NCBI GenBank assembly: GCA_964422915.1
Contig: CAYRDG010000001.1
Location: 101,402-165,401 of the forward strand
Origin: an uncultured Frigoriglobus sp.
GTDB taxonomy: Bacteria; Planctomycetota; Planctomycetia; Gemmatales; Gemmataceae
Direction of reading: 5' to 3'
DNA: 64,000 bases
Shown: positions 3,071 to 47,092 of the stretch, piece by piece
Layout of the letters: each line of letters opens with the position of its first letter
How positions within the stretch are numbered: position 1 is the stretch's first letter
Notes under the pieces: generated by a model
What the model was told of the DNA's origin: nothing
The model's database searches: none
The model's input: the letters and a program-made list of their open reading frames with translations, nothing else
Program-made: the position numbers and the translations under genes

Positions 3071-4375
3071 ATGAATTACCTGAATTCATCCGTCGCCGAA
3101 CGGCCCCTCCTGCCGGCAACGGATCGGAGAACGCCGCTGATGTCTTCTCCTGGAACGCTATCCGCCGCACTGCACGTTCTGCCGAACTGGTGGCAGGACG
3201 CGTCCGACCCCGTTGTCTTCGACATGCTACTGGTGAACTGGTCGCGAGCGTGTGGGTGGAAGGCGAGCGGATTCGCGTGGGTGGGTGACAGCGAACCCGT
3301 GGCGCGGACGGTGCAGGGCGGCTCCGAGGTCGAGTTCATGGCACCCCCGGAGGTGCCCGACGCACTGCGTCGCCTCAAACACGGTGAAACGAGCGCCTTT
3401 TACTCACTGCCGAACTCGGCCGGGCGAGTCTTCGCGGCAGTGCAACCGGCCGGTCGCACCCCCGGCGTTCTGTGGGCAGAAAAGCCCGCGGGTCAGCCCT
3501 GGAGCGATGCCGAACGCGCTTACCTCACGCTTGCGGCCCGCACGGTCGAACGTGCTCCGGTGCTGTCGGCGATTATCGGGCCGGTCATCGATCCCGACCG
3601 GCTTTACCAGCGACTCGGAGACGCTGCCGTGATCGCCGGCCGTCTCGCGCACGACTTCGACAACTTGCTGCAGGGGATTATCGGCTTCTCCGACCTGACG
3701 CTGCCGCTGGTTCCCTCAGGTACGCAAGCGGCGAACTTCGTCGCCGAGATCGGCAAGGTCGGTCAGCGCGGGATTCAGTTCACGCAGCAACTGCACCACC
3801 TGAGCCGCAGCGGCCAAGTGAAGCCGACCCCTGGCTCGGTGGCGTTGGCTATTAACAAGGAGGAGACTCGCCTCCGGTCGGTGCTGCCCGTTGGCGTGCG
3901 TGTGGAGAAGGAATTGACCCCGAACCTGCCGCCTGTGGCTATGGAGGCCGGGCCGCTCCAGAGCGTACTGGGTCACTTGCTGGAAAACGCAGTCGAGGCC
4001 TGCCCGCAAGGGGGCGTGGTGCGGGTATCGGCTCGCACGGTCGAAATGGGCGAGGCAGAGGCCCGGGCCTATCTGGGCCGCGCCGGCGCCGGAGCATACT
4101 TGCAAATCAGCGTTTCCGACACCGGTTCGGGTATCCGTCCGGAAGTGCGGCGACGACTTTTCGTTGAACCGTTCTTCACCACCAAGGTGCGGCATCGCGG
4201 GTTGGGACTAGCTGTGGTCTACCGCGTACTCTGCTCGCATCGTGGTGGCATCCAACTGGAATCCGTACCCCCACCCGGGACCGGCACGCTGGCCAAAGTC
4301 GTGCTGCCACTGGCGGCCGTCCGGCCACCTGCGGTCGTCGCCGGACCCATTGCCGCCACCGCGGTCGGAGGTTGA
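3071..4375 (+). CDS. Soluble sensor histidine kinase
   Basis: H-box AHDFDNLLQGIIGFSDL, an N-box-like LLENAVEA, and G-boxes DTGSGI and GLGLAVVYRV. I saw no obvious TM helix. Confidence 0.85.
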   Translation: MNYLNSSVAERPLLPATDRRTPLMSSPGTLSAALHVLPNWWQDASDPVVFDMLLVNWSRACGWKASGFAWVGDSEPVARTVQGGSEVEFMAPPEVPDALRRLKHGETSAFYSLPNSAGRVFAAVQPAGRTPGVLWAEKPAGQPWSDAERAYLTLAARTVERAPVLSAIIGPVIDPDRLYQRLGDAAVIAGRLAHDFDNLLQGIIGFSDLTLPLVPSGTQAANFVAEIGKVGQRGIQFTQQLHHLSRSGQVKPTPGSVALAINKEETRLRSVLPVGVRVEKELTPNLPPVAMEAGPLQSVLGHLLENAVEACPQGGVVRVSARTVEMGEAEARAYLGRAGAGAYLQISVSDTGSGIRPEVRRRLFVEPFFTTKVRHRGLGLAVVYRVLCSHRGGIQLESVPPPGTGTLAKVVLPLAAVRPPAVVAGPIAATAVGG

Positions 4376-4380
4376 ATCCC

Positions 4381-5118
4381 ATGCACTTTGACATCGAAGA
4401 GCGTCTGACCCCCGCAATGAATATGATCCAGACACCCAAACCCATGTTCCCACCGATCACTCCTTCGCCGAAGCGTTTTCCCTCTGCGACCGAGCGAGAG
4501 TTGCAGTCGGCCGGCGATATCCACATCCTGATTCTGGATGACGACCCGCACACCTGTGCTGTCATCCAGGCCGCGTTGTCGAACCGCGACTTCGTTGTGG
4601 ATGTGGTCAGCGACCCGATGTTGGTGGAATCCGCGCTTTCCGGATCAACCAACTACCACCTCATCATCCTCGACTACGTACTGCCTGGCCTGGACACGGA
4701 GCAAGTCTTCGGGTGGGTCCGCGACCGTCAGCCCGATGCTAACATCGTTGTTGTCACCGGCTATCCGTCTGTCGATAGCGCCATCAACTGCCTGCGGGCC
4801 AAGACCTGCGACTACCTGACCAAGCCGTTTCAGGTGGAGCAACTCCGCGAGATCGTCTACCGGTGCCTGGAAACCAAGGGCCTCCTGCGGATGACCGAAG
4901 ACGCGCTGAAGGAAGCGCTGGGGACGGCGATCCGGGAACGCCGTAAGACTCTGGGGCTGACGCTGGCCAACATGAGCGACCGCACGGGTGTCTCGCTCGG
5001 TTACCTCAGCCAGATTGAACTGGGAAAGAACTCCGCCAGCATCGAGACGCTCTACCGCATCTGCCTGGCGCTGGGAATGAAGATGAGCGAACTTTTCAAC
5101 GCTATCCAGCGAAGCTGA
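4381..5118 (+). CDS. Response regulator: REC domain fused to an XRE-family HTH domain
   Basis: REC motifs ILILDDD, DYVLPGLD and LTKPF. The C-terminal LGLTLANMSDRTGVSLGYLSQIELGKNSASIETLYRICLALG matches an HTH_3/XRE fold. A GGAGG SD lies 10 nt upstream of the ATG at 4381; the ORF track starts at the TTG at 4372. Confidence 0.8.
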   Translation: MHFDIEERLTPAMNMIQTPKPMFPPITPSPKRFPSATERELQSAGDIHILILDDDPHTCAVIQAALSNRDFVVDVVSDPMLVESALSGSTNYHLIILDYVLPGLDTEQVFGWVRDRQPDANIVVVTGYPSVDSAINCLRAKTCDYLTKPFQVEQLREIVYRCLETKGLLRMTEDALKEALGTAIRERRKTLGLTLANMSDRTGVSLGYLSQIELGKNSASIETLYRICLALGMKMSELFNAIQRS

Positions 5119-5138
5119 AGTTGGAGTATGACGTACAG

Positions 5139-5173
5139 AGGGGCCGGCATTCCACCCTGGAGTGCCGACCCCT
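5139..5173. terminator. Hairpin between convergent genes (candidate bidirectional terminator)
   Basis: AGGGGCCGGCA (5139-5149) pairs with TGCCGACCCCT (5163-5173) at 10 of 11 positions, with a 13-nt loop. It is followed by TTCGCGTTT on the plus strand. Confidence 0.4.
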
Positions 5174-5185
5174 TTCGCGTTTCAT

Positions 5186-5431
5186 TCACCGCTTCAACTT
5201 CAGTCGCTCGTCGAGCCTTTCCGCTATGGCGTCCTCGTCGGGGAACTTCCCTGTTTCCAGCTTCGAGTAAATCAACTCGCCGTTGAACGAGATTTCAAAG
5301 CAACCGCCGCCAGACGGCACGAGGGTGAGGCCTGCGAGCTTCTGCTTGAAGCCCGTGAGCAAACGGGCCGCCAAACTGACGGCCTTTGGCTCGTACCCTC
5401 AAAGTGAGCAGTATTTCACTTCAACATTCAT
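5186..5431 (-). CDS. SelW/SelT/Rdx-family selenoprotein; in-frame UGA (minus-strand codon at 5399-5401) read as selenocysteine
   Basis: Manual minus-strand translation from the ATG at 5431-5429 gives MNVEVKYCSL-U-GYEPKAVSLAARLLTGFKQKLAGLTLVPSGGGCFEISFNGELIYSKLETGKFPDEDAIAERLDERLKLKR. CSLU is the CxxU redox motif, and GGxFE...G.LIYSK...G.FP is the Rdx core. A GGAGA SD lies 7 nt upstream of the ATG. The ORF track reports only the part downstream of the UGA (5186-5374). Confidence 0.8.
5370..5390 (-). promoter_or_regulatory. Candidate bacterial SECIS hairpin
   Basis: On the minus strand, 8 nt after the UGA: GCCAAA-GGCCGUCAG-UUUGGC (6-bp stem, 9-nt loop). A second 6-bp hairpin (GCCCGU-UUGCUC-ACGGGC) follows. 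The assignment rests on position only. Confidence 0.3.
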
Positions 5432-5434
5432 GCG

Positions 5435-5470
5435 ATGTCTCCAGGTTGAAAGCGGGCGATCTGGAGACAT
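5435..5470 (-). promoter_or_regulatory. Intercistronic hairpin overlapping the selenoprotein Shine-Dalgarno sequence
   Basis: Perfect 10-bp inverted repeat, ATGTCTCCAG (5435-5444) and CTGGAGACAT (5461-5470), with a 16-nt loop. On the minus-strand mRNA the ATG-proximal arm contains the GGAGA SD. Confidence 0.4.
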
Positions 5471-5483
5471 TCTACACTCGGAA

Positions 5484-6227
5484 CTAGGCGCGCGGGCCGC
5501 CACGATGCGACATCAGGAATTGATCGAGGCCGTGTGGGCCGCCGGTGTAGACCACCACAAATGTCACCGCCCCCAGACCGTGCTCCTCTGCAGGGATGAC
5601 TCGCGCGGTGGCGTGCGAGGACTGAGCGTCGTGGATGCCCTTCAGGTCGAAGTGGCCGTCGTGGCGGAAGACATAGACCTTCGCGGAGCCTCTGCCATTT
5701 GGACTGCGGAACACGATCACGGGCACATCGTTTCCTTGCAACCGCTCCACACCCTGAAAGACGAGCAAGTCGTAGTCGAAGGGGAAGGGCAACCGGTTGG
5801 GGATGTTGTTCGCAGCGAGGAACTGCCGGGTCGATTCCGGCGGGTCGTTCATCTCGTCGTCGATCTTCTGAACCATCAAGTCCGTGTCGACCTTCGGGCG
5901 TGATGCCGAGAAGAGGCTGACCCCCAGGAGCATGAGCACGACCGCGGCCGCCACGGCGACTCCGCTGCGGTAGAGCTTGCGGCGGAGGATTAGTCCCTGC
6001 TTCGCAGAGACATGCGCGATGAGCTGGTCGCGCAGCCCTGCCGGGACCGGCACCGCGCGCATGGCGGAAGCTACCGCGTGATCGAACGATGCGGCCGCGC
6101 GTGCATCGGCGGCGCAGGCGGCGCAGGTTGCGAAGTGGCCTTCCAGCGAGGCCGTCACGTCCGCGCCGAGTTCCTCGGCCGCGTGTCGCCTTAATCGCAG
6201 ATAGAACTGTGCGTCACGGCACTCCAT
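5484..6227 (-). CDS. Membrane-anchored anti-sigma factor with zf-HC2 (HxxxCxxC) N-terminal domain
   Basis: N-terminus MECRDAQFYL...EGHFATCAACAADA carries the H-x3-C-x2-C zinc anti-sigma motif. One TM helix (VAVAAAVVLMLLGVSLF) is followed by a ~130-aa extracytoplasmic domain. The start overlaps the sigma gene stop by 14 nt. Confidence 0.8.
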   Translation of the reverse strand: MECRDAQFYLRLRRHAAEELGADVTASLEGHFATCAACAADARAAASFDHAVASAMRAVPVPAGLRDQLIAHVSAKQGLILRRKLYRSGVAVAAAVVLMLLGVSLFSASRPKVDTDLMVQKIDDEMNDPPESTRQFLAANNIPNRLPFPFDYDLLVFQGVERLQGNDVPVIVFRSPNGRGSAKVYVFRHDGHFDLKGIHDAQSSHATARVIPAEEHGLGAVTFVVVYTGGPHGLDQFLMSHRGGPRA

Positions 6228-6768
6228 CGGTCACCTTCTTCGGGCCGGCGGCCTTTCCGTCGTGTTGGGCCTCGTCCCCATCGGCTGGCGTCAGACGATT
6301 TCGCAAGTATGCCTTGCCTCGCGCCAGCCGCGACATCACCGTTCCGATTGGCAATTCCATCTGCTCGGCGATGTCACGATAACTGAACTCTTCAAAATAG
6401 AACAGAATGATGGGCGTTCGGAACGTCTCGTCCAGGTCGTTGAGCGCTTGCTGGAGCTGCGCCGGGTCGATGTCCGGTACCGGGTCGTCCTCGCGCTGCA
6501 TCAGGTCGCCGACCGCATCGAGCGGTACAAGCCTGTGCCGCTTCTGATCGCGGATCCGGTGCAGGTAGAGGTTTCGCATAATGCGAAACAGCCACGCCTT
6601 CGCTCGATCCGGCTCGCGGAGTTGCGGCAGGTGAGCCAGTGCCTTGCCGAATGTCTCCTGCGTTAGATCGTCCGCATCGGCCGAGGAACCGCTGAGCCGG
6701 TAGGCGTAGCGGTAAAGCCCCTCGTAGTGAGCGTCGATCAACTGGGGCAGCCCACCGGCGGAAGGCAT
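6214..6768 (-). CDS. ECF-type RNA polymerase sigma-70 factor
   Basis: Region 2 (LYRYAYRLSGSSADADDLTQETFGKAL, WLFRIMRNLYLHRIR) and region 4 (FEEFSYRDIAEQMELPIGTVMSRLARGK) are recognisable. A GAGGGAG SD precedes the ATG. Confidence 0.9.
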   Translation of the reverse strand: MPSAGGLPQLIDAHYEGLYRYAYRLSGSSADADDLTQETFGKALAHLPQLREPDRAKAWLFRIMRNLYLHRIRDQKRHRLVPLDAVGDLMQREDDPVPDIDPAQLQQALNDLDETFRTPIILFYFEEFSYRDIAEQMELPIGTVMSRLARGKAYLRNRLTPADGDEAQHDGKAAGPKKVTDGVP

Positions 6769-7595: not shown

Positions 7596-10500
7596 TCACT
7601 TCGTCGAAGCACGCTGCAGCGCGCGGCTCGCGTCGCGCATCGCGCGCTCGGCGGCAGCCCGATTGCCGTCGGGGGCGAGATGCTGAATCGCCTTGCGCAT
7701 CGACCGCTCCGCACCGAGGAGTGCCTCGCCCGCGGCCGGAGTGGAGTTCGCTGGCGCGGCGGCCGTGAGTGTTTCGTTCGCTTTGTGCAGAAGTTTCTCG
7801 GCCGCCGCGCGATGGGTCTCGGCGTCCGCAGGGTTCCCCTTCGCAGCCTTCGACACGGCCTCAGTGAGTTGCCGGCGGGCTTCCTTCACCGTTTTCGCAA
7901 CCTGGGTGAGTGTGTCAATTTCACTCGGATCGAGTGCCTGTGTCGCGTCGGTCGCCTCCTCCATGAACTCGTCCAGATTGCGGACAAGATCGGCCATCTG
8001 CGCGAGTTGCCAAAGCGAGGTGCGGCGCTGGGAGGTGAATACCGAGGGTTGGAGCTGCCTGGCCAGTTCCGTGGTGAGGCCAGTGACCTGGGTGTGCAGG
8101 TATCGTTGTTGTTTTGCCAGTCCGCGGATCGTGCCGGCCAGTGATCGGGAAGGGAGGTAGCCATCGGCAACGGGCGGCTGGAGCGGTGTGGGTTGTGGTG
8201 GCGCGGTCGCGAGTTCAGTCACGTCGGCCATCAGCGCAGCAAGTTCGTCGAGTATCGTGGCGAGGCTCTTGAGGTTGGTCCCGATGCGATCAGGATCCGA
8301 CTTCGTGCGGAGTCGCGAATAGAGGTCGAGGGCGCGTTTCTTGAGAAGCTGCCCGGCGAGTCCCACGCGCGTGAACGTAAGCTCGTCGGCCTCGCGTGAG
8401 AGCATCCGCAGGGGTTTATCCGAGAAGAGGAGTTCTTTTGGCTTTTCGGCGGCAGCATGGCGAAGCCGAGCGAGTCGCTGGATGCGCTGAAGATCGGTTT
8501 CGGAGTTTTCGAGTCGGTCGGCGAGGAGGGCGACTGCCTCGGCCGCGGCGCGGATTCGCCGACGAGCCTCATCGGGTCGGTCACGCAGTCCCATCTCGGC
8601 CGCAATCACGGCAGCGCGGGCCTCTTCGAGCCTTCCAACGGCTTCAGGCGAGTTGAGATTCCCCAACCGAAGCGTGGCTTCTTGCAGCAGTGGTGTGGCC
8701 GGCTCCAGCAACTTCACTGAGAGTTCCGGACCGGCTGCATCGAGCGCATCGGCCAGCGCGACGAGCTTGCGGCGAAGCAAGCTGGCCGTTTCATCTGGCT
8801 GGGGAACGCCCTCTGCGGCCCACTTCAGCCGTTCCAGTTCGCGACGAGCCCACGCCTGCGACGCGATGATATCGAGTGGCGAACCGGCGAGAAGATCAGC
8901 GACTGCGGCCGAGAATGCGGCAGCGGCACGCGCGCGACGTGCGCCGAGTCCGGGAAGGTCCAGCGCCTCAATAGCCACGGCGAGCTTCCGCTGTCGTTCG
9001 GCTTGCGGCGTGAGTTTTTTGGCAATCGCTGCGATCAGCAACGCATCGGGTGGCTTTGTCTCATACCCCTTCAACACTGCTTCCACAGCGTTGGAACTGG
9101 CGTCGAGTTCCTGACGGAGTGCCGCAATTGCACGGAGCGTCCTCGCGAGTCGCTCGGCGACAGGAGGTGTGCTGTCGGCGAGTCGGTGGAGCGTGCGGAC
9201 CGTCAGTCGCATCGTCATCTCGGCACCGGCGCCATCGCCCGCGAGCGCCTTCCGTGCAAGGCGGGCATGGTCTGTGGCTTCGCGGATCTCCTTCGCCGCA
9301 TCTGGCAGTACCGGGAGTGATTCGATGGCCGATTCGATGGCCGACTGTTCGTCGCGGAGCGCAGACCGAGATGCGGGCGGCGCCGCGGCGAACCCTCCGG
9401 GCTTCGTCAGGACACGGAGACGCTCGATCAAATCTTCCTGCCAGAGCGCAAGTTGCCGCGTGGCGAACTTCGGATCGGTGCGATCGCTCGCCCACCTGTC
9501 GAAGGTGACCGCGATGTGTTCCAGTGCCTGCGCGTGTTTCTCCAGTTCCGTGAGTGCTTCGACTGTACGGCCAGCGGCAGCGAGATCGGCGACACGGAGG
9601 AAGTCGTCTGGCCGTGGCAGCGTCACTCCGGCGAGGCGGCAAGGTGTATCGAGGCGGTCGAAGACTGCTGCCGTCTGCTTCGCCAGCGCGTTCTGGTCCC
9701 GCGCGATGACAGAGACGAGGGCGGCGCGTGCCTCGGCCGCTGTGCGTTTCGCATCGGCATCGAGGTGGTGAAGCGTGTCGGCGAGTCGGCGCACGGAAGC
9801 AGCCAGTCGCCGGACCTCTGCAGCCTTCGCAGCCTCGGCAGCTCTACGCAGCGGTTCACTTTCGCGCACAAGTGTTTCCAGGCGAGTGAGGAGTTCGCGC
9901 TGGCGCGGCAGAAGGTCGTCGCCGGCCTTCACACGATCCGCGAGTGCGAACTGATCGATCGCCACCGCCATGAGTCGCAAGTGATCGAGCCGGTCCTGCG
10001 CAAGATGTGTGTTGCGAACGAGCAAGCCGCCGAGTTTCGCGCGAGCCTCGGTGAGTTGCGCACCGGCGGCAGCGAGCGCGCTGGCCCGCGAGGTGGGGTT
10101 ATTTGTCTCGGCCTTGCGGAGTGATTCATCCGCGTGCGCAAGGTTCAGCGCTGCGACATCGTGTGCGGCTGTCGCGAGTGCCCGCAGTTCCTGCGCGAGC
10201 GAAATCGTACGTGCAAGCTCTTGCAATGCTGCGGTAGTGTTTCGTAAACGCGCGCGGATGTTGTTCAGCCGCGCGGTTTGATCGAAGGTGAGCGCGTCAC
10301 GGCCTGCGGTATCGCGTTGAAGTGCCGCGAGTTCGGTTGCCGTGTCGGTAATTTCCTGGCTCGTGGCAGAAAGACCATCGCCGAGTGAATCACGCCAGAT
10401 GCCCACTTCGGTTTCAACCAGCGGTGGCGAATCTGGACGGATTCGCAGTTCCGACCACCCACCGGGCGGGTAGAGAGTCTCCTGCGGTCCGAGTTTCGCT

Positions 10501-11969
10501 TCATCGAATCTGCGGTTATCTCGAAGTCGCACACGCAGGCGGATCGTTTCTCCATCGGCTGCCTTGCCGGCGAGTGCGAGATCGAGCGTGCCAGAAACCT
10601 GCGGCCCCGCGACAGTGAGTGGGATGGGCTCTTCCACGGGTTTCGCGTCTGCCGGGCCAGTGAGGTATTCCAGCACAGCCGAGGATACGGCCAGATCGTC
10701 GCGCGCGGTAAAGGCGATTCGCACGCGATCCGTTATTCGGGCGGGTCGTGGTCGCACGGTGAGGCCGCTCAACTGCACGAATTGTGGTGGCGTGTCGGGC
10801 GTGACACGCACAGCGAGAGCCTTTTCAGTGCGGAGTCGCTTCCCACGTTCGACGCTGTCGAGAAGGAGTTTCAGTGTGCCATTCTGCCGAACGAGAAACT
10901 GTGCAGTTGCACTCAATTGATCGGATGCGAGCGCCAGTGGAATGACTTCCGACGGGCCACTGTCGGGTCGCCAGATGAGCTGTGCGAGTGCGGCAGTCCG
11001 CCGAAACTTCAGCCGAAACGCGATCGTACTGAATTGGAGTGCGTCGATGTCGGTGAAGCCCGACGCGATGCGCGGCGGACGGCCGGTGTAGGCCGGTTCC
11101 CGGACAACGATCTGTGTACCATCCGCCAGTTCCACCGTGTCGATGGCCGTGATGCGGAACCACGCACTGCGAACGCCGCCAATCTCCACGCTGTAGTCAA
11201 AGTCGTGCGGAACAGCAGGCAGCGTGATGTGGAACGTCGTGCCGTCGAAGGCCATCGGTTCGTGGCTCTCGGTCGCACTGGAAGAGAGGCGGATGCAGAG
11301 GGTGGCTTCTGTGGGCGTGAGGTGGCCAGCATCGTGTGTGACGTATGCCGAGAGGGTGACCGGCCCGCCGCGGCGCACAGTCAGTTCACCCGTGGCAACG
11401 TGGATGCGAAACTCACTGCGGGTATTCGCGTTCGCCCACGGCAGGACGATTCGTCGCAGTCGCTCGCTTCCACTGGGGTACGAAACGGCAGACGCGAACG
11501 CCAGCGCGGCGGCCAGCGCCGCGCCAGCGAGGCGCGCTGTCGCACGTACGGGCAAGGCACGCGCGAGGTTCAGACTCTTCACCCGGCGTGCGGTGTCCGC
11601 AGCGACTGCGGCGCGTACCGGACTGGGTGGGTCGGACTGCGGTTTGGTCACGGCCTCGCGGAGTCGTTCACCCAGTTCTGGCAGCAGTGGTTGCAGGTCG
11701 CAGGCCACCTCCGCGGGAGTGATCTCTGCACGCCACGGCAATACCACCGCGCGCCACGCCAGCACACCGAGGCCCGTGATCCAGGCCGACAGGCAAAGCC
11801 CACGCGCCCACGGCGGGAGATTGAAGGCGGCGTCGAACGCCGCCACCGCTGAGAGAATCGCCACGGCTGCCAGTACGAAACGGGCGGCACCGCGTGCCAT
11901 GCGAAGCAGACGGATGCGTGGAATCAGAGCGGAGAGCCGCTGCTCGATCTCGGGCCGGGTTGAGGCCAT
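7596..11969 (-). CDS. Large (1457 aa) membrane-anchored protein, DUF4175-like: two N-terminal TM helices, a beta-rich region, then a ~900-aa Ala/Leu/Arg-rich helical region
   Basis: Uninterrupted 4.4-kb ORF with N-terminal hydrophobic segments FVLAAVAILSAVAAFDAAF and LCLSAWITGLGVLAW. The family call comes from my recollection of the DUF4175/TIGR02302-type architecture, not from a search. Confidence 0.7.
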   Translation of the reverse strand: MASTRPEIEQRLSALIPRIRLLRMARGAARFVLAAVAILSAVAAFDAAFNLPPWARGLCLSAWITGLGVLAWRAVVLPWRAEITPAEVACDLQPLLPELGERLREAVTKPQSDPPSPVRAAVAADTARRVKSLNLARALPVRATARLAGAALAAALAFASAVSYPSGSERLRRIVLPWANANTRSEFRIHVATGELTVRRGGPVTLSAYVTHDAGHLTPTEATLCIRLSSSATESHEPMAFDGTTFHITLPAVPHDFDYSVEIGGVRSAWFRITAIDTVELADGTQIVVREPAYTGRPPRIASGFTDIDALQFSTIAFRLKFRRTAALAQLIWRPDSGPSEVIPLALASDQLSATAQFLVRQNGTLKLLLDSVERGKRLRTEKALAVRVTPDTPPQFVQLSGLTVRPRPARITDRVRIAFTARDDLAVSSAVLEYLTGPADAKPVEEPIPLTVAGPQVSGTLDLALAGKAADGETIRLRVRLRDNRRFDEAKLGPQETLYPPGGWSELRIRPDSPPLVETEVGIWRDSLGDGLSATSQEITDTATELAALQRDTAGRDALTFDQTARLNNIRARLRNTTAALQELARTISLAQELRALATAAHDVAALNLAHADESLRKAETNNPTSRASALAAAGAQLTEARAKLGGLLVRNTHLAQDRLDHLRLMAVAIDQFALADRVKAGDDLLPRQRELLTRLETLVRESEPLRRAAEAAKAAEVRRLAASVRRLADTLHHLDADAKRTAAEARAALVSVIARDQNALAKQTAAVFDRLDTPCRLAGVTLPRPDDFLRVADLAAAGRTVEALTELEKHAQALEHIAVTFDRWASDRTDPKFATRQLALWQEDLIERLRVLTKPGGFAAAPPASRSALRDEQSAIESAIESLPVLPDAAKEIREATDHARLARKALAGDGAGAEMTMRLTVRTLHRLADSTPPVAERLARTLRAIAALRQELDASSNAVEAVLKGYETKPPDALLIAAIAKKLTPQAERQRKLAVAIEALDLPGLGARRARAAAAFSAAVADLLAGSPLDIIASQAWARRELERLKWAAEGVPQPDETASLLRRKLVALADALDAAGPELSVKLLEPATPLLQEATLRLGNLNSPEAVGRLEEARAAVIAAEMGLRDRPDEARRRIRAAAEAVALLADRLENSETDLQRIQRLARLRHAAAEKPKELLFSDKPLRMLSREADELTFTRVGLAGQLLKKRALDLYSRLRTKSDPDRIGTNLKSLATILDELAALMADVTELATAPPQPTPLQPPVADGYLPSRSLAGTIRGLAKQQRYLHTQVTGLTTELARQLQPSVFTSQRRTSLWQLAQMADLVRNLDEFMEEATDATQALDPSEIDTLTQVAKTVKEARRQLTEAVSKAAKGNPADAETHRAAAEKLLHKANETLTAAAPANSTPAAGEALLGAERSMRKAIQHLAPDGNRAAAERAMRDASRALQRASTK

Positions 11970-18745: not shown

Positions 18746-19995
18746 TGCAGTTCCCCGGAGTCGTCGAAGAGCGTTCCCTGTGGGTTGAGTGCGATCCAGC
18801 AAACGGCCGCGGCGCCGAAGAGAGCCACGAAGAGGAGTAGTGCATGGTTCCAGTTGCCAGTGACTGCAACCATCCCGCCAACTGCGACCGGGAAGATCGT
18901 CGCACCGAGGTTCCCGCTCATATTCATCGTTGCAAATACCGTTGCGACATGCCGGCCGCCATAGGCGATGGCCAGCGCATAGGCACTCACTCCACTCGCC
19001 ATTCCACAGAAGGCGCCAATGCTGATGAGGAGAACTGCGAGTTGCGGATCAGCGATGAAATACGCAGCGGCCGCGACGAAAGTACAGGTGAAGAGTGAGA
19101 CACACGTCATTCCCTGACGTGCCAGCCGTGAGTTGCCCGTGCGACGCAAGAGCCAGTCCGAGAGGATCCCACCGAGTAACCCACCAAAAGCACCCGTGAA
19201 CGGCGGCCAGAACGCCAACCCACCGGCGTCCTGCGCTGTAAGACCCTTCGCCTCCTGGAGAAAACGAGCGAACCAGGTGTAGAAGAAAACCATCGCGCCG
19301 GCACGCAGAAACTGCTGAAAACAGAGGAGGAGCATCTGCGGATCGGTGACGAGCCTCGACCACCGCACGCGCGAGATAGCATCTGGTGACGGAAGATCAT
19401 GCCACTCATCGCCTGAATCATCAGTATCGCGTTTAACTTTTGGCGTGTCCGGTCCTGGTACTATGAACCAGAAGAGCACAGCCCAGAGGAGACCCGGCAA
19501 CGCATACAGGGCGAATATCTCACGCCACGTCAGTGCGCCGAGAAGGTTGCCGGTCATTCGAGGAGCCAGTGCGCCGCCGAGACTCATACAGCACGCCAGC
19601 GCGCCGGAGGCGAAGGCATGCTGCGTCTTGGGGAAGGTCGCACCGATGGCCTTCGTGCAACACGGAAAGACACTGGCCTGCGCTCCGCCCATCGTGGCCC
19701 AGATTAACAGCAATCCCAGTGGCCCGGCGGCAAGTCCGGCCAGTCCGGTGAGCACGGACCACGCCAGCGCGAACAGTACCAGCGTCGGCTTGCTGCCGAG
19801 TCGGTCGGCCGCCCACCCGCCGGGCAACTGCATGAGTGAATAGAGCAGGTACCATCCGCCCATCATCAGGCCGAGGTATTCGGAGGAAGTGTGTAAATCG
19901 TCCTCGATGGCCTTTGTCGCGCCGTTCATCGCCGAGCGCTGGACGTAGGCGATGAGTGTAATGGCACACAGGAAACAGAGGAGCGCGTATCGCAT
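18742..19995 (-). CDS. MFS transporter (anion:cation symporter / DgoT-like)
   Basis: About 12 predicted TM segments. MRYALLCFLCAITLIAYVQR and GGWAADRLG are typical MFS loop 2-3 motifs. The start was chosen at the ATG at 19995. Confidence 0.85.
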   Translation of the reverse strand: MRYALLCFLCAITLIAYVQRSAMNGATKAIEDDLHTSSEYLGLMMGGWYLLYSLMQLPGGWAADRLGSKPTLVLFALAWSVLTGLAGLAAGPLGLLLIWATMGGAQASVFPCCTKAIGATFPKTQHAFASGALACCMSLGGALAPRMTGNLLGALTWREIFALYALPGLLWAVLFWFIVPGPDTPKVKRDTDDSGDEWHDLPSPDAISRVRWSRLVTDPQMLLLCFQQFLRAGAMVFFYTWFARFLQEAKGLTAQDAGGLAFWPPFTGAFGGLLGGILSDWLLRRTGNSRLARQGMTCVSLFTCTFVAAAAYFIADPQLAVLLISIGAFCGMASGVSAYALAIAYGGRHVATVFATMNMSGNLGATIFPVAVGGMVAVTGNWNHALLLFVALFGAAAVCWIALNPQGTLFDDSGELQ

Positions 19996-20021
19996 GGATT
20001 GTCTTCGCGTTCGTCGGTGGC

Positions 20022-20930
20022 CTATCGAAGCAGGATTTGGAGTTGGGCGAACAACCGATCCACTTCCCGGGCGGTCTCGTCGTCGAGTTCCCAGCCGTAC
20101 GGCTTGCGCCGCCGCGCAGAGGTGAAGAGGCCGCGCTTCACCATGAGGTACTTCTCGACCGCGAGGAAACCATCCAATCCGGCCTGCAGTTGCAGCGCGA
20201 CCAGCGCACACACGGGGAAGTAGAGACGGTACGCGGTGGCGTCATCGCCGCGCTGGAGTGCCTTCCAGATGCCCACGATGCCATCGAGCAATTCCATGCC
20301 TGGCATTGTGCCGGCGATACCGCGGCGGTAGCTGTCGATGAGGAAGATGCCGCCCGATCCCTCGAACATCACCGCACGTCCGCTGGTCGCGTCGCGCAGC
20401 GCCGAGAGTGTCGGTCCGTTCGGCGCGGCTTCAGGCTTCAAGAGAATCTTCTCAGGCCCGTAACGATCGAGTAACTTCACGCAGACCGGGATCGGAATCG
20501 ACTGCCCGACGTAGCCGCTCGCGTCCTGCACAATCAGTGGGATACTGATCCCGTCTGCCAGCGTGCGAAAGTGATCGAGCAACTGCGATTCGCTCAGCTT
20601 TGCCGTGAGGGGCGGCACAGCCATAACGGCATCGCAGCCATCGCGTTCTGCGGCGCGGGCGTATACGAGTGCCTGCTTCGTGCTCTCGGCGCCCACGGCT
20701 GCGAACACTGGCCCGCGGCCAGCGGCGAACTCCACCAGCATTCGTGGGAGAGCGAGTCGCTCATCGTGCGTGAGGCGGAACGTCTCGGACACCATCCCGG
20801 TGCCGATGCCATTGGCGCCGACAGCGAATGCCCAGTTCACGGCGCGTTCCAGCGCGGGCCTGTCAATCTCATCGTCATCGGTGAACGGCGTGTGCGCGAT
20901 GGTCAACACGCCTTGCAATGTCCTGGGCAT
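20022..20930 (-). CDS. Dihydrodipicolinate synthase / N-acetylneuraminate lyase family (class I pyruvate aldolase-like)
   Basis: GVLTIAHTPFTDD...ID and GANGIGTGMVSE are consistent with a DapA-family fold. An AGGAGA SD precedes the ATG at 20930. Confidence 0.8.
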   Translation of the reverse strand: MPRTLQGVLTIAHTPFTDDDEIDRPALERAVNWAFAVGANGIGTGMVSETFRLTHDERLALPRMLVEFAAGRGPVFAAVGAESTKQALVYARAAERDGCDAVMAVPPLTAKLSESQLLDHFRTLADGISIPLIVQDASGYVGQSIPIPVCVKLLDRYGPEKILLKPEAAPNGPTLSALRDATSGRAVMFEGSGGIFLIDSYRRGIAGTMPGMELLDGIVGIWKALQRGDDATAYRLYFPVCALVALQLQAGLDGFLAVEKYLMVKRGLFTSARRRKPYGWELDDETAREVDRLFAQLQILLR

Positions 20931-22308: not shown

Positions 22309-23271
22309 TCACGCACCGAGAAGTTCCTTCCCCAGCCCTCGCTGCTTCGCCACCTCGATGAGCCTTGCCGCAAGTGCGATGTCCTCGATTCCCAGCCCCA
22401 GCGATTTGAACATCGTCACGTCGCGCGGCGACTCGCGGCCCGGGTACTTGCCAACCAGCACCGGTGCGAGATCGTACACGTCGCCCCACTGGAGGATGCC
22501 GGCCTTCATCGATTCCACGAAGTCGCCGGCTTCGAGTCGCGCCTGCTCCTTGTTGTCCACCGTCACCAGGTTCGTGCGACGAAATACCTCCACGTCGGTT
22601 TCGGTCTTTGCGAGAAAGTTGGACCCGATCAGGTTGAGGTGCTGCCCTTCGCTCACCCATTCGCCGAGGAGGACCGGTTCTCGCGCGCTCGTGGCAGTGA
22701 TGAGGATGTCTCGCCCCATCGCGGCTTCTTCCGGCTTCTCGACGGGTACGACCTCGATGCCGGTTTCCTGTGTCAGTTGTGCGGCGAAGCTCTTGCGGCG
22801 TTCGGCATCGCGGCCATACACGTTCACTTGCTTGATTGGCCTGACCAGACACACCGCCAGCAGTTGCGTGCGTGCTTGCTTGCCTGTGCCGAACAGCCCG
22901 ACTGTGCTAGCGTCGGCGCGGGCGAGTTTCTTCGTCGCCACGCCGCTGGCGGCTCCTGTGCGAAACTGTCCGAGCAGGTCGGCCTCAACCACCGCAGTGA
23001 CGCCACCATTCCTGGCGTCGAAGAGCGTGACGTGAAACTTTGCTTTGCCATCCTTCGAGACGGTGTAGGCTTTGAAACCGAGTGCCCCGAGCGTCTTGGC
23101 CGCTGCGGGGAGAACATGCAGCATGACGTGATCGGTGCGAACGCGCTGCCGCGGCGCGTTCTCGGCCTCCTCGAGTCCCAGTTTCCGGAACGCAGCAGCC
23201 GTCGTTTCCATCGCGAGTTCCATTGTCAGAACGCGCGCGACATCTGCTTCGGACAGGTAATAGATGGACAT
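22309..23271 (-). CDS. Ornithine cyclodeaminase / mu-crystallin family protein
   Basis: 320-aa ORF with a Rossmann motif GLFGTGKQA and family-typical N-terminal and C-terminal regions (FKSLGLGIEDIA). Confidence 0.8.
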   Translation of the reverse strand: MSIYYLSEADVARVLTMELAMETTAAAFRKLGLEEAENAPRQRVRTDHVMLHVLPAAAKTLGALGFKAYTVSKDGKAKFHVTLFDARNGGVTAVVEADLLGQFRTGAASGVATKKLARADASTVGLFGTGKQARTQLLAVCLVRPIKQVNVYGRDAERRKSFAAQLTQETGIEVVPVEKPEEAAMGRDILITATSAREPVLLGEWVSEGQHLNLIGSNFLAKTETDVEVFRRTNLVTVDNKEQARLEAGDFVESMKAGILQWGDVYDLAPVLVGKYPGRESPRDVTMFKSLGLGIEDIALAARLIEVAKQRGLGKELLGA

Positions 23272-23301
23272 GGGATGACTCCCCGGCGAACTCTTGCTCG
23301 C

Positions 23302-24498
23302 TTACTTGGCTGATGCCAACCATTCCTTGAGTTTTCCAATTCCTGCCTCGATCACGTCGCGACTGGTCGCGAACGACAGCCGCGCGAAGCCTTCCACACC
23401 GAACGCCGAACCTGGAATGAGGTTGACGTGCGCCTGATCGAGCAGCGCCGCGCAGAAGGTGAGGGAATCGGTAACGGGCGTGGTGCCGAACGACTTGCCG
23501 AAGTAGGAGGAGACATCGAAGAAGGCGTAGAACGCGCCGTCGGGCACTGGGAGTTTCAGACCTGGGATTTGCTTGAGTAAACTAATGGCCAGTTCGCGCC
23601 GGGCGGCGAACTCCTTCCGCATCTCGGCGACGCACTCTTGCGGCCCGGTGAGCGCTGCGATGAGCGCCGCCTGGCTCACGCTCGATGGGCAGCTCGTTTC
23701 CTGACTCTGGATGGTGTCCATCGCTTTGATCACGGGTGCTGGGGCAACGGCCCAGCCCATCCGCCAGCCGGTCATGGCGTACGTCTTGCTTGCACCGCTG
23801 ACTGTGATGGTGCGATCCTTCAGCCACGGGCGGAGCGTTGCTACACACGTCGGCTTCGCGTTACCGTAAGTGAGTTGTTCGTAGATTTCGTCGCTGAGTA
23901 TGGCTGCGTCGGTGTCGCTCATGGCATCGACCAGCGCTTCGAGTTCCGCGCGAGTGTAGACACTGCCAGAAGGGTTGCAGGGTGAGTTGATCATCAGCAT
24001 GCGCGTGCGCGGACTGACCGCGGCGCGCAACTGTGCTGGCGTCAGCTTGAAACCAGCCTCAGGAGCGGCGTTCACCAGCACAGGTGTTGCGCCGGTCATG
24101 CTTACCAGGTCGGAATAGCTCACCCAGTATGGCGTGGGGATGATGACCTCGTCGCCCGGACCAACGGTGGCGGCCAGCGCGTTGTGGAGCGAGTGCTTTG
24201 CCCCATTCGAGACAAGGACGTTTTCCGGCGCGCATTCGAAGCCGTGGAACGCCTTGTACCACTTGCAGATGGCGGCCTTCACCTCGGCTGTTCCGCCAGT
24301 GGGCGTGTAGTGCGTCTGGCCGGAGAGAGCGGCGTTCTCTGCGGCGTCGCAAATGTGTTTGGGAGTGTTGAAATCCGGTTCGCCCAGGCTGAAGTCGTAG
24401 ACCTTGATGCCCGCCGCCTTCAGTTGACGGGCCTTTGTGCCAGCGGCTATTGTGGCGGAGGGCTTGACGGACGCGGCCAGCGTCGAGATGCGGATCAT
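23302..24498 (-). CDS. Aspartate/aromatic-type PLP aminotransferase (class I)
   Basis: SLGEPDFNTP, NPCNPSG and SGASKTYAMTGWRMGW (PLP-lysine region). The start was chosen at the ATG at 24498 by homology logic. Confidence 0.9.
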   Translation of the reverse strand: MIRISTLAASVKPSATIAAGTKARQLKAAGIKVYDFSLGEPDFNTPKHICDAAENAALSGQTHYTPTGGTAEVKAAICKWYKAFHGFECAPENVLVSNGAKHSLHNALAATVGPGDEVIIPTPYWVSYSDLVSMTGATPVLVNAAPEAGFKLTPAQLRAAVSPRTRMLMINSPCNPSGSVYTRAELEALVDAMSDTDAAILSDEIYEQLTYGNAKPTCVATLRPWLKDRTITVSGASKTYAMTGWRMGWAVAPAPVIKAMDTIQSQETSCPSSVSQAALIAALTGPQECVAEMRKEFAARRELAISLLKQIPGLKLPVPDGAFYAFFDVSSYFGKSFGTTPVTDSLTFCAALLDQAHVNLIPGSAFGVEGFARLSFATSRDVIEAGIGKLKEWLASAK

Positions 24499-26996: not shown

Positions 26997-28535
26997 TCAC
27001 TTTTCCTTCGCGAGCAACTTCTTGATCTCCGCGCTGGCATCCTGAATATCACGCGCGTGGAATTCACCAAGAATCCTGCCGTCTCGATCAATTAGAATGG
27101 TGGTTGGGAACCCGCGGATGCCGTACTGAGCAATGGCTCCGCCGGGGCGTTTCTCATCACCACTGCCCACCCGTGTTCCCGGGACCAGCGCGCTGGGAAA
27201 AGGCATCTCCTTGCCCTTCCAGAGTTGTTTCTTGATCTTCACCAGTTTCGCGTCAAGTTTCTCGGCTGTATTCACTTCACCGTCGATGTCCATGTGAACA
27301 CCGACAATGGCCAACCCCTTGTCCGCGAACTTCTCGTGCAACTCGATTAGCACTGGCATCGACCCAACACACGGTCCGCACCAGTATCCCCAGAACTCCA
27401 CGAGGACATACTTCCCCTTCAGGTCGGCGAATCTGAGCTCTTTCCCCTTCCATCCAACAACGCCTTTCAGTTCCGGGGCAGGTTTCCCCTTCAGCAGGGC
27501 AAATGCCAGGGGCTTCATTGCAATCGGCTCTACAGTGTATTCATTCCGATTCTCTGGAACGGTGATCTCGACGTACCGGCCGTCTACCGCGCTCCCGTAC
27601 ATGTTGAGGGTGTATCGACCTGGCGGCGCGAGGAACTCGAACTTGCCGTCTTTCGAGGAGTAGAACGCGACCGGGCTGCCGTCTCGAAGCAGGTAACCGC
27701 CCGCCCAGCCGATTGGCTGCCCCGCCCTGGTCAGTTCCTCGCATGTGAGCGACCCTGAAAGTCGCACCTGTGGCAGCAATTCGACGCGAACTTGACCCGT
27801 GGCGAGCCGCGCCGGAGAGAGTGAGGCGAATCCCATCGTGTCCTTCGCGGCACCACGCGCGATGAGCTGGCCGGTACGAATGTTCTCGGTTGGTATTACG
27901 ACAGTTCCGCGGGCATCACAATTTCGGGCATCCCGGAAGATCCATCTGCGCGATTCCTTGCGGTTCTCACCATCGAGCCAGGACATGAACTCAGAGACAC
28001 TGGCGGCAGAGGCGGGTTTTCCATCGGCACCAATCACCGTGACTGCGACTTCCTTCGGGAACTCCTTGAAGTCTCTGGACGCACGGACGAGTGTGGCCAG
28101 GTACTGCTGGTCGTTGGCCACGAATATGGTCGGGCGTTTGCCGGTGTATTGATTGGGGAAGCAAAGCGTGAGCTGGCTGCCATTGAACGTGTATCGTCCT
28201 TGCAGAGTGCCAGCCGGGAGCTTGTAGCCTGTCAGGAATGCCGACAGGTCAAGTTCGGTGAGTTTGAGATCCACATTTCCAGGCCTGGCCGCATCGAAAA
28301 CGAGTGTGCCCTTCAACGTCGTCTTCGATCCCATCAGATTCGACAAGGTGAATGAATCTCCGTTCACACTAACGACAGATTTCCACACACGACCGAGTTC
28401 ACTTCGCTTCCTGAACGCGGCCTTGTCGAAGAGCCAGATTCCCTGGAACTGTTTCGCGGGCGATTTCGGCACGCCCGCACTCACGGCTGGCGAGACGACG
28501 GCGAGAAACACGACGATCGACAGGATGCGAAGCAT
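26997..28535 (-). CDS. Exported multidomain thiol:disulfide oxidoreductase (TIGR03067-like domain, beta-sandwich region, TlpA-type thioredoxin)
   Basis: Signal peptide MLRILSIVVFLAVVSPAVSA. FQGIWLFDKAAF...GDSFTL resembles the planctomycete TIGR03067 domain. The C-terminal VLVEFWGYWCGPC carries the thioredoxin active site. Confidence 0.8.
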   Translation of the reverse strand: MLRILSIVVFLAVVSPAVSAGVPKSPAKQFQGIWLFDKAAFRKRSELGRVWKSVVSVNGDSFTLSNLMGSKTTLKGTLVFDAARPGNVDLKLTELDLSAFLTGYKLPAGTLQGRYTFNGSQLTLCFPNQYTGKRPTIFVANDQQYLATLVRASRDFKEFPKEVAVTVIGADGKPASAASVSEFMSWLDGENRKESRRWIFRDARNCDARGTVVIPTENIRTGQLIARGAAKDTMGFASLSPARLATGQVRVELLPQVRLSGSLTCEELTRAGQPIGWAGGYLLRDGSPVAFYSSKDGKFEFLAPPGRYTLNMYGSAVDGRYVEITVPENRNEYTVEPIAMKPLAFALLKGKPAPELKGVVGWKGKELRFADLKGKYVLVEFWGYWCGPCVGSMPVLIELHEKFADKGLAIVGVHMDIDGEVNTAEKLDAKLVKIKKQLWKGKEMPFPSALVPGTRVGSGDEKRPGGAIAQYGIRGFPTTILIDRDGRILGEFHARDIQDASAEIKKLLAKEK

Positions 28536-33096: not shown

Positions 33097-33834
33097 CTAT
33101 CCCTCATCGCGATTCCGTGCGGCCGCGCGGAGGGTGCCGTAGCCCACGGGTAGGAGCTTCGGCCGCGGCACCATAACGCCCGTGATGCCGCCGTGCGTGT
33201 CCCACAAATCGCGGTAGTTCGACCGCAGGAAGTGAAATACGTCTGGCTGTGGATGATTCGCGAGGTAGCCGCGCACCAGTTCGGCCATGCGGGAATCGTA
33301 CCCTTCCTTTGAGTGCGAATGCACTGCATAGCGGCCAGGGTGGCGCCGGAGGTCGCCATCGAAGCGCGGGCTGACGTGGTACAGTTCGTGAAACACCGTC
33401 ACAAGTTTTTCGCGGAATGGCTGATCGAGGAAACGCGGCAAGCAGAACGTGAGGACATAGAGCATCTCGCTTCCATCCACGAAGTAGCGCTGCACCTGAT
33501 ACTCGGTGTGGCCATGCCGCCGGGTCAACGCGCCGTCGCGGAAACGCAACGGCGTGACGCGAGCCTGGAGACCATAACGGCTGCGGTTGCGGCTGTGGGT
33601 GAAGCTGACGAGCACACGCGGCATCTGAACGTGACGCAGTTCCTCGCACCGCGACGCCACGTCGGCGCAGAGGCGGCGCATTCGTGCTGTGAAGTCGAAC
33701 ACCGCGGCGCGCGGCGCGGCGCCTGGCGGGCGGATGCCGTCGGGCACCACCCAGCGTGCGGGTAGTGGGTGCCGGGCATCCCAGCGCAGTTCCAGAGGGA
33801 GTGCTCGCGGGCGGCTATTCCTTGTGCCGATCAT
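33097..33834 (-). CDS. Hypothetical protein with HExxH zinc-metallopeptidase-like motif
   Basis: 245-aa ORF with VFHELYHV. I could not make a finer family assignment by eye. Confidence 0.55.
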   Translation of the reverse strand: MIGTRNSRPRALPLELRWDARHPLPARWVVPDGIRPPGAAPRAAVFDFTARMRRLCADVASRCEELRHVQMPRVLVSFTHSRNRSRYGLQARVTPLRFRDGALTRRHGHTEYQVQRYFVDGSEMLYVLTFCLPRFLDQPFREKLVTVFHELYHVSPRFDGDLRRHPGRYAVHSHSKEGYDSRMAELVRGYLANHPQPDVFHFLRSNYRDLWDTHGGITGVMVPRPKLLPVGYGTLRAAARNRDEG

Positions 33835-34056
33835 CCGTGCGGTAACCCATGAGCCGATGGAGGTGAGGCTAGAGGGCCATGCTAGAGCGGAACGTGAAGC
33901 GGGTCAACGATCTATCCGCCGGCTGTGTCTTCTTCACATATGTGAAATTCGATTGAAGCGGTGCGCGTGGACTGGCCGATACAGGTGGCAATCCCGGATG
34001 ATCCGCGCGAGGGGCGTGAGATCGTCAGGCAACGGATTCGCTTTATGGGGTGCGGG

Positions 34057-34365
34057 ATGCGGACCAATCGGAAATGGCTGGCGCGCGTCGCGGCCTTCGT
34101 TATGCTCGCTCTGACTTCCTCGACCGGGTGTCAGACCTGGTACGGCGGCTTGACGCTGCCAAGTGGTCGTTATTTGGACGGTCACTTCCCACAATACTTC
34201 GCACCAGACCCGTCATTCCCACTGCCGCGTGAGCTGGCCAGCATGGAAGACCCAGAGGGTGCCGCACGGCGTGCCGGCGGGCCCGCACTCGGACCGATTC
34301 CAGCGGCTCCTGGCGCGCCTGAACCAGGTGCCGGCAATCCTGGTGCTTCCACGCCGATCCCGTGA
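34057..34365 (+). CDS. Small lipoprotein, Pro/Gly/Ala-rich C-terminus
   Basis: MRTNRKWLARVAAFVMLALTSSTGC has a signal peptide plus lipobox. An alternative ATG is at 34045. Confidence 0.55.
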   Translation: MRTNRKWLARVAAFVMLALTSSTGCQTWYGGLTLPSGRYLDGHFPQYFAPDPSFPLPRELASMEDPEGAARRAGGPALGPIPAAPGAPEPGAGNPGASTPIP

Positions 34366-34387
34366 TTGAGCCATCAGTACGCACTCC

Positions 34388-34417
34388 GAACGCCAGCAAC
34401 GCAAGTTGCTGGCGTTC
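34388..34417 (+). terminator. Hairpin after the lipoprotein gene
   Basis: GAACGCCAGCAAC-GCAA-GTTGCTGGCGTTC forms a 13-bp perfect stem with a GCAA tetraloop. Confidence 0.55.
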
Positions 34418-34641
34418 GTGCGTTGGAGGAGCAGACTCGAATGCTTCTGCGCGAGCGGCAGTGAGTGAATCTCTCCTCCGAGAAAGCCGCGCGACCCTTC
34501 GCCGGCTCGGCTTGATTCGGCCGTGGCCTCACGTTATTGCCCCCCTGTACCGAGCGAACGACTTCCACCACCCGGCATGGACGCCGCGACGGGGGAGATA
34601 GCGGCGAATTGGGGTCGCCCGACGTTCGGGGGAGGGGAAAC

Positions 34642-35232: not shown

Positions 35233-35263
35233 GGAATGTGCGATTCGTGCGAGCGCCTGGGAT

Positions 35264-47026: not shown

Positions 47027-47092
47027 GGTGCATCCCTCTGGGTTTGTGGAAGAGGCAACCAAGAGTGTACGGCAAGTCGCGGAACAGGAAAG

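Follow-up and report, generated by a model that had tools for sequence, protein, structure and literature searches.

A SelW-like gene with a conserved in-frame UGA, predicted to encode a selenoprotein, in an uncultured planctomycete of the Gemmataceae

Results and discussion

Reading frame across the in-frame UGA

A stretch of 64,000 nucleotides (nt) from an uncultured Frigoriglobus sp. (Gemmataceae, Planctomycetota), in the following called the window, carries on its minus strand, at positions 5186–5431, a gene of the bacterial SelW-like family (Rdx, SelT/SelW/SelH) that very probably encodes a genuine selenoprotein. The frame runs from an ATG at 5431-5429 to a TGA stop at 5188-5186 and consists of 81 sense codons with a single in-frame TGA, the predicted selenocysteine (Sec) codon (Table 1). 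Its translation is MNVEVKYCSL*GYEPKAVSLAARLLTGFKQKLAGLTLVPSGGGCFEISFNGELIYSKLETGKFPDEDAIAERLDERLKLKR*, with the redox motif C8-S-L-U11, and around the start the minus strand reads ...CCUGGAGACAUCGC AUG AAU GUU GAA GUG AAA UAC UGC UCA CUU UGA GGG UAC GAG CCA AAG GCC GUC AGU UUG GCG GCC...

The original prediction, made from the letters and a mechanical list of open reading frames (ORFs), had proposed that the list holds only the last part of the gene and that an ATG further upstream in the same frame joins it across the UGA. Both were seen at the positions given: the only listed ORF for the locus is one of 62 amino acids (aa) at 5186-5374, started by a TTG at 5374-5372, which lies inside the hairpin described below, and the upstream frame from the ATG at 5431 continues into it. 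The Shine-Dalgarno sequence (SD) proposed ahead of this ATG is present as well, at the distances given in Table 1, and all the motifs that had been quoted were found in the sequence. A sequencing error as the source of the in-frame TGA was excluded, since the TGA is conserved across genomes. A Logan contig of the run SRR11845633 matches the window without a difference in 389 aligned bases, the TGA among them, and was given little weight as it may represent the same underlying data.

Membership in the Rdx family

All family searches were performed with the U of the 81-aa protein written as C. The protein matched Pfam Rdx (PF10262) over profile positions 1–73 of 74 with E=6.4e-21 and 74.8 bits (cutoff 22.6), and this full-frame match is far beyond chance. 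As had been predicted, the TTG-started ORF loses the redox motif: the truncated 62-aa form gave 48.3 bits and covered profile positions 19–73 only, that is, without the first 18 positions of the profile. A match was also found to NCBIfam TIGR02174 (CXXU_selWTH; 67.9 bits against a cutoff of 34.2). The score against NF041051 (SelTWH_Campy), 76.7 bits, is below the cutoff of 88, so the protein is no equivalog of that subfamily.

When aligned with proteins of solved structure, residues 3 to ~76 could be matched to the cysteine-containing relatives 3DEX, 2FA8, 2OJL, 2OKA, 2OBK and 2P0G as well as to MIEN1 (2LJK) and mouse SelW (2NPB). In these alignments (e.g. with 3DEX, 2FA8 and 2LJK) the UGA falls on the second Cys of the CxxC motif, and the ten codons before the UGA therefore supply strand beta1 and the first active-site Cys. 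Alignment to PF10262 and to SelW-like proteins, which had been suggested as a check, thus passes across the UGA, both for TIGR02174 and for the Cys-form structures. From homology to the solved structures, with E-values down to 4e-10, the product is predicted to be a small thioredoxin-fold protein.

Homologues and conservation of the UGA

A search of protein databases gave 183 homologues, 120 of which were listed. Almost all of those listed are 54–71 aa long and cover ~58–77% of the query, many of them under the label 'selenoprotein W-related', and these short, partial homologues have therefore been cut at the UGA by gene callers, in agreement with the earlier claim that such genes are missed or truncated by standard callers.

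To this was added a scan of genomes, with one genome per species, which returned 79 loci from about 10 phyla. The loci derive from Gemmataceae (best 72% identity), Pirellulales, Isosphaeraceae, Verrucomicrobiota, Pseudomonadales, Gemmatimonadota, Poribacteria, Bacillales, Desulfovibrionaceae, Acidobacteriota, Latescibacterota and others. One locus could not be aligned, and the 79 sequences referred to from here on are the 78 alignable loci together with the window. A TGA was found at the homologous codon in all 78 alignable loci, in the shared context [YF]-C-x-x-TGA-[NG]-Y-E-P-K-A-V-S-L-A. In none of the 79 sequences are the nine codons ahead of the TGA interrupted by a stop, the Cys three codons before it is invariant, and in 71 of them an ATG, GTG or TTG is located exactly ten codons before the TGA. 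The mean entropies of 1.23, 0.78 and 1.61 bits at codon positions 1, 2 and 3 ahead of the TGA follow a codon pattern, and purine-rich motifs (GGAG, GAGG or AGGAG) are situated at an equal distance before the start in most of the related loci. Differences between orthologous loci that would break the frame before the UGA had been named as a possible refutation; none were seen, and the homologues align across the whole upstream segment.

Two single sequences deviate in other ways. In a Gemmataceae metagenome-assembled genome (MAG; locus L062, 3001-3241) the start, the CxxU motif and the hairpin are kept and the frame is lost after about codon 32 (KQKV...), which points either to an indel in the assembly or to a true pseudogene. 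A protein in ENA (P0002) shows a Trp at the Sec position (YCSLWNYEPK) and differs by three residues from the translation of locus L014, a Pirellulales MAG with a plain TGA at the Sec codon. Because the near-identical L014 has this TGA, the W in P0002 is probably a translation-table artefact and not a real Trp form.

A SECIS-like hairpin downstream of the UGA

A search for a bacterial selenocysteine insertion sequence (SECIS) in positions 5330–5400 had been suggested, and a hairpin was found within this range at 5384-5366, with the sequence GGCCGUCA-GUU-UGGCGGCC, encoded by the codons for K-A-V-S-L-A-A. According to the published model for bacterial SECIS elements (bSECIS) such an element has an apical loop of 3–9 nt, an upper stem of 4–16 bp, a distance of 16–37 nt from UGA to loop and a minimum free energy (MFE) of ≤ -7.5 kcal/mol, together with a G among the loop's first two positions, usually as G[G/U] (PMC13188914). 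The hairpin of the window satisfies all of these, with an MFE of -19.4 kcal/mol for the element in this comparison and -12.6 kcal/mol for the upper hairpin by itself, and in unconstrained folds the same was the case for 69 of the 79 sequences.

When analysing the alignment for compensatory changes it was found that three of the pairs in the hairpin join two wobble positions. At alignment columns 24/36 the pair is CG in 56 sequences, GU in 8, UA in 7, GC in 2, AU in 1 and UG in 1, and unpaired in 4, while the pair 27/33 changes from CG to GC twice, alongside Val-to-Ala and Leu-to-Phe replacements in Bacillales loci. The covariation score is 0.151, compared with 0.066 ± 0.007 in shuffled alignments, none of which (0/500) reached it, and with at most 0.073 when the partners were slid, and it is carried by just 2–3 varying pairs because the hairpin is extremely conserved. 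The conservation is also seen at the third codon positions, with entropies there of 0.27, 0.10 and 0.27 bits for V, S and L and of ~1.6–1.9 bits for most other codons; these frozen synonymous sites at the top of the hairpin are a constraint at the nucleotide level for which the protein has no need.

RNAalifold kept a core of 5 bp throughout the family, and the extension to 8 bp was found in Gemmataceae and many other loci. A family-wide lower stem (GAGC/GCUC) was considered and dropped since the pairing is not maintained across loci, and the lower stem within 5349–5392 is for this reason only a prediction specific to the window.

Stop codon use and selenocysteine machinery

TGA is also the ordinary stop used most often in the window, by 24 of the 42 predicted genes, and the read-through of the UGA would therefore be local and specific to this site, with no reassignment of the codon. 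A six-frame scan of the window for other UGA codons in redox motifs (C..U, U..C and similar, with coding-like GC content at third codon positions (GC3) on both sides) found the SelW-like gene only; the other matches were gene ends abutting unrelated frames and were rejected.

In several of the related loci the SelW-like gene is placed together with genes for Sec insertion. A tRNA-Sec with anticodon TCA follows the orthologue in three Verrucomicrobia loci (Table 1), and in one of these, the MAG locus L049, the order is SelW-like gene, tRNA-Sec, selA and selB (listed ranges 3289-4734 and 4728-6224). The Verrucomicrobia selA matched TIGR00474 with 470 bits (cutoff 268) and selB, which ends at the edge of the locus, matched TIGR00475 with 299 bits (cutoff 242). 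In the Bacillales loci L053 and L059 selA is located directly after the SelW-like gene, L053 being from an isolate, Pseudalkalibacillus decolorationis DSM 14890 (selA 561 bits; listed range 3261-4709). L059 (listed range 5103-6062) also has a thioredoxin reductase gene ~0.4 kb further on. Complete gene sets for Sec insertion have been reported for the planctomycetes Gemmata obscuriglobus and Isosphaera pallida (PMC4807772). By analogy, the linkage in orthologues and the gene sets of relatives give indirect support for Sec machinery in the organism of the window.

Weighing of other explanations

Some results speak against a functional selenoprotein gene. ARAGORN predicted no tRNA, and no tRNA-Sec, in the 64-kb window, and a Pfam scan of its 42 predicted genes found no SelA, SelB or SelD, but only seryl-tRNA synthetase, which is universal. 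Rfam gave no family for the hairpin, neither with the whole window at the gathering threshold nor with positions 5100–5520 at E<=10. In addition, the seeds of the genome scan included the peptide patterns MNVEVKYC and EPKAVSLA, so that conservation at the protein level was partly selected for, which does not apply to the TGA and the synonymous sites.

If the UGA were a true stop, the product would be an ORF of 58–62 aa starting at an internal TTG or CTG, with the upstream ten codons as a leader peptide or untranslated. This is exactly the short ORF given by the ORF finder and by public gene calls, and a TTG is found at the matching place in 59 of the 79 sequences. The TTG, however, is part of the conserved loop and stem of the SECIS, is replaced by CTG, TTC or CTA in the other 20 sequences and has no SD ahead of it, and the short protein would lack both strand beta1 and the CxxC/U motif. 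Across about 10 phyla, moreover, the ten upstream codons are conserved in the manner of coding sequence and keep an invariant Cys, together with a conserved start and an SD, which makes a true stop extremely unlikely. Equally improbable is that the UGA is decoded as Trp, Cys or Gly, by reassignment or by near-cognate read-through independent of a SECIS. Cys or Trp is inserted at Sec-UGA codons at a low level when selenium is limited, and the public translation P0002 has a W at this position; this W is however likely to be the artefact discussed above, TGA is the most frequent ordinary stop of the window, a covarying hairpin is conserved at SECIS distance and orthologous loci are linked to selC-selA-selB.

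A relic gene in a genome that has no Sec machinery, non-functional and yielding a 10-aa peptide only, is slightly less improbable and still very unlikely. It would agree with the lack of Sec genes within the window, with the frameshift in locus L062 and with the loss of the Sec trait being common in bacteria (PMC1794560). When looking at the gene itself, on the other hand, no sign of degeneration is seen in the start, SD, Cys8, UGA, 8-bp SECIS and full-length downstream frame, all of which are intact; intact orthologues with 59–77% identity and kept synteny exist in other Gemmataceae, and the full machinery has been reported for a relative, G. obscuriglobus (PMC4807772).

Proposed mechanism

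For the selenoprotein gene the following course of events is proposed. Translation would start at the ATG at 5431 and not terminate at the UGA at 5401-5399, as a complex of SelB, GTP and Sec-tRNA(Sec) would dock on the mRNA hairpin 5384-5366 while the UGA sits in the ribosomal A site, and selenocysteine would be inserted as residue 11 of the 81-aa product. The motif C8-S-L-U11 would be placed where strand beta1 ends and helix alpha1 starts, and there Cys8 and Sec11 may cycle between the selenol/thiol and selenenylsulfide forms, making the protein a putative thiol-dependent oxidoreductase. In Gemmataceae the gene, situated downstream of a pair of genes for an extracytoplasmic function (ECF) sigma factor and a ZAS-like anti-sigma factor, may join the stress regulon of that pair.

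Genomic neighbourhood

The SelW-like gene is located 52 nt downstream of the putative anti-sigma gene on the same strand and is possibly co-transcribed with it. The orthologue of the anti-sigma protein in Gemmata algarum (locus L002) showed a weak match to zf-HC2, and a sigma factor 72–80% identical to that of the window is found at the matching position in L002, L040 and L017. When comparing the related loci, the trio of sigma factor, anti-sigma factor and SelW-like gene was found to be conserved in these three and partly in L005, and to be absent outside Gemmataceae. This suggests that the Gemmataceae gene may belong to a sigma regulon for thiol or redox stress. In Pirellulales the usual neighbours are an ABC-F ATPase upstream and elongation factor P and pyrroline-5-carboxylate reductase downstream, all of them housekeeping genes without an evident connection. 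A scan for sigma-70 promoters found none near the gene and is uninformative for ECF or planctomycete promoters. The neighbour clusters 2, 7 and 8 were discarded as they consist of shadow ORFs overlapping the SelW-like gene.

Upstream of the start a putative leader hairpin of 10 bp has the SD in its 3' arm (Table 1). The G. algarum orthologue has a longer hairpin of another sequence that likewise covers the SD, and in other relatives no such hairpin is clearly found. The hairpin might act as a gate on translation, or it might do no more than terminate the upstream operon. At the other end, a GC-rich hairpin at 5140–5172 separates the gene from the convergent response-regulator gene (4372-5118, plus strand) and is probably a bidirectional terminator for both transcripts. 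A simple terminator scan did not call it since there is no T-run on the minus strand, and miRNA-like Rfam matches on it were dismissed as chance.

Taken together, the Gemmataceae unit and the leader hairpin over the SD suggest, by analogy, a selenol effector of a thiol-stress response that would be controlled by the sigma factor and possibly gated at translation. An analogue of this proposed role is thioredoxin in the SigR-RsrA regulon. An orthologue that heads a selC-selA-selB cluster could have a role in the handling of selenium for the Sec pathway rather than in general antioxidant defence. That these contexts hint at such specific roles, a sigma-controlled selenol effector in Gemmataceae and selenium handling for the Sec pathway in Verrucomicrobia and Bacillales, is a tentative suggestion to which we assign a rather low probability.

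Table 1. Positions of the SelW-like gene, its elements and neighbouring features in the window (in the last row, in orthologous loci)
Feature	Position	Strand	Properties and evidence
Complete coding sequence of SelW-like/Rdx selenoprotein (predicted)	5186..5431	minus	81 aa including Sec11; sequence, translation, Pfam Rdx, TIGR02174, PDB homologues
In-frame UGA, predicted Sec codon (Sec11)	5401-5399	minus	TGA in 79/79 sequences; aligned to second Cys of CxxC in solved structures
Cys8 codon TGC, first residue of CxxU redox motif	5408..5410	minus	Cys invariant in 79/79 sequences
Shine-Dalgarno-like GGAGA	5442-5438	minus	GGAG 7 nt and GGAGA 6 nt before ATG 5431-5429
SECIS upper stem-loop	5384-5366	minus	GGCCGUCA-GUU-UGGCGGCC; 8-bp stem, GUU apical loop, 22 nt after UGA
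Extended SECIS with lower stem (GAGCC/GGCUU region), predicted	5349..5392	minus	MFE fold -19 to -25 kcal/mol, z = -2.0
Putative 5' leader hairpin AUGUCUCCAG...CUGGAGACAU	5435..5470	minus	10 bp; -16.6 kcal/mol; 3' arm contains SD
Putative anti-sigma factor, 247 aa, C3...H31-x3-C35-x2-C38 (ZAS-like)	5484..6227	minus	Motif; DUF3379 match 1e-5
ECF-type sigma-70 factor	6214..6768	minus	Sigma70_r2 and Sigma70_r4_2; overlaps start of anti-sigma gene
GC-rich hairpin, 14-15 bp	5140..5172	both	-30.6 kcal/mol on minus; -36.2 kcal/mol on plus, where UUUCGCGUUUC follows
Histidine kinase	3071-4375		Alongside response regulator 4372-5118, convergent to SelW-like gene
tRNA-Sec (anticodon TCA) after SelW-like orthologue, Verrucomicrobia	L044 3360-3456; L049 3270-3366; L079 3402-3498

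Other features of the window

Two large proteins with Redoxin/AhpC-TSA/thioredoxin-like domains are encoded on the minus strand at 26997-28535 and 45938-47062, both as complete ORFs without UGA. Three stretches of 1.1–1.4 kb (18802-20022, 23271-24437 and 33834-35264) appear without a gene in a crude map based on GC3, and when scanned for UGA in redox motifs they gave no convincing candidate. A 1457-aa protein rich in Ala and Arg and with no Pfam match is encoded at 7596-11969 (minus strand), and a protein of 2574 aa with nine Big_3_5 Ig-like repeats and FG-GAP repeats at 49278-57002 (plus strand); both are typical planctomycete giant genes, unrelated to the SelW-like gene.

Significance

The original prediction is confirmed in what it observed and supported in its reading. 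The locus agrees with the SelW-like family in every respect examined and is an ordinary case of a well-known family rather than a discovery, one by which selenoprotein specialists would not be surprised. The importance is chiefly one of annotation, as gene callers would give a fragment of 58–62 aa without the active site, in the same way as for almost all the listed homologues, while with the correct call a planctomycete selenoproteome gains a member and the organism can be regarded as likely to use Sec. Mildly new are three points of context, namely that the gene is linked to ECF sigma and ZAS anti-sigma genes in Gemmataceae, that it is linked to selC-selA-selB in Verrucomicrobia and Bacillales, and that its SECIS is exceptionally well conserved across phyla and has no match in Rfam. 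The alignment of the 78 loci and the window represents an unusually clean cross-phylum bSECIS with covariation between wobble positions and, as there is no Rfam match, could therefore seed a covariance model by which the SelW-like family would be found automatically. As for the function of SelW-like proteins, leads that can be tested come from the sigma/anti-sigma and selC-selA-selB contexts.

Comparison with known systems

The closest known system is the bacterial SelW-like family described by Zhang, Fomenko and Gladyshev in 2005, which with 48 genes outnumbered every other selenoprotein family in the Sargasso Sea data set, and for which CxxU, a bacterial SECIS and systematic misannotation were noted already at that time (PMC1088965). 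Few Cys homologues of SelW-like occur in Sec-using organisms (PMC1794560), and a review from 2026 has the entry 'SELENOW-like, PF10262, CxxU, predicted with high confidence' (PMC13188914). The gene of the window shares with this family a length of ~80 aa, the N-terminal CxxU and the Rdx domain, the in-frame UGA followed by a small hairpin with a G in the apical loop, the scarcity of Cys forms and the routine truncation. There is no essential difference; the copy in the window comes from an unannotated Gemmataceae-like planctomycete and is located downstream of an ECF sigma/anti-sigma pair, a context of which no mention was found in the SelW-like literature examined.

Cys-form bacterial Rdx proteins (3DEX SAV_2001, 2FA8 Atu0228, 2OBK, 2OKA, 2OJL and 2P0G) have the domain, the length class and the motifs YC..C, GG.FE. 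and G.FP in common with the SelW-like protein. In the Cys forms, however, the CxxC is followed by a helix start of the type R-W/L-R-A, whereas in the Sec forms the sequence is U-[NG]-YEPKAVSLA, the codons of which double as the SECIS. Compared with the SECIS of E. coli fdhF and the bSECIS model (PMC13188914), the element of the window likewise lies within the coding sequence, just 3' of the UGA, as a stem-loop whose small apical loop begins with G-U at a distance within 16–37 nt, but it is unrelated to the fdhF element in primary sequence, its loop in the MFE fold has just 3 nt (GUU) and a bulged U is not evident.

Mammalian SELENOW (2NPB) and the other members of the Rdx family (SelT, SelH and Rdx12/MIEN1, 2LJK) share the Pfam family and the position of the CxxU, and residues 3–72 could be aligned to the mammalian relatives with E=1e-3 for 2NPB and 1e-9 for 2LJK. 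The eukaryotic SelW members use a kink-turn SECIS in the 3'-UTR together with SBP2 and eEFSec, whereas in the gene of the window the SECIS is situated within the coding sequence directly after the UGA and is of the bacterial SelB type, and this bacterial in-frame SECIS is the only difference from mammalian SelW.

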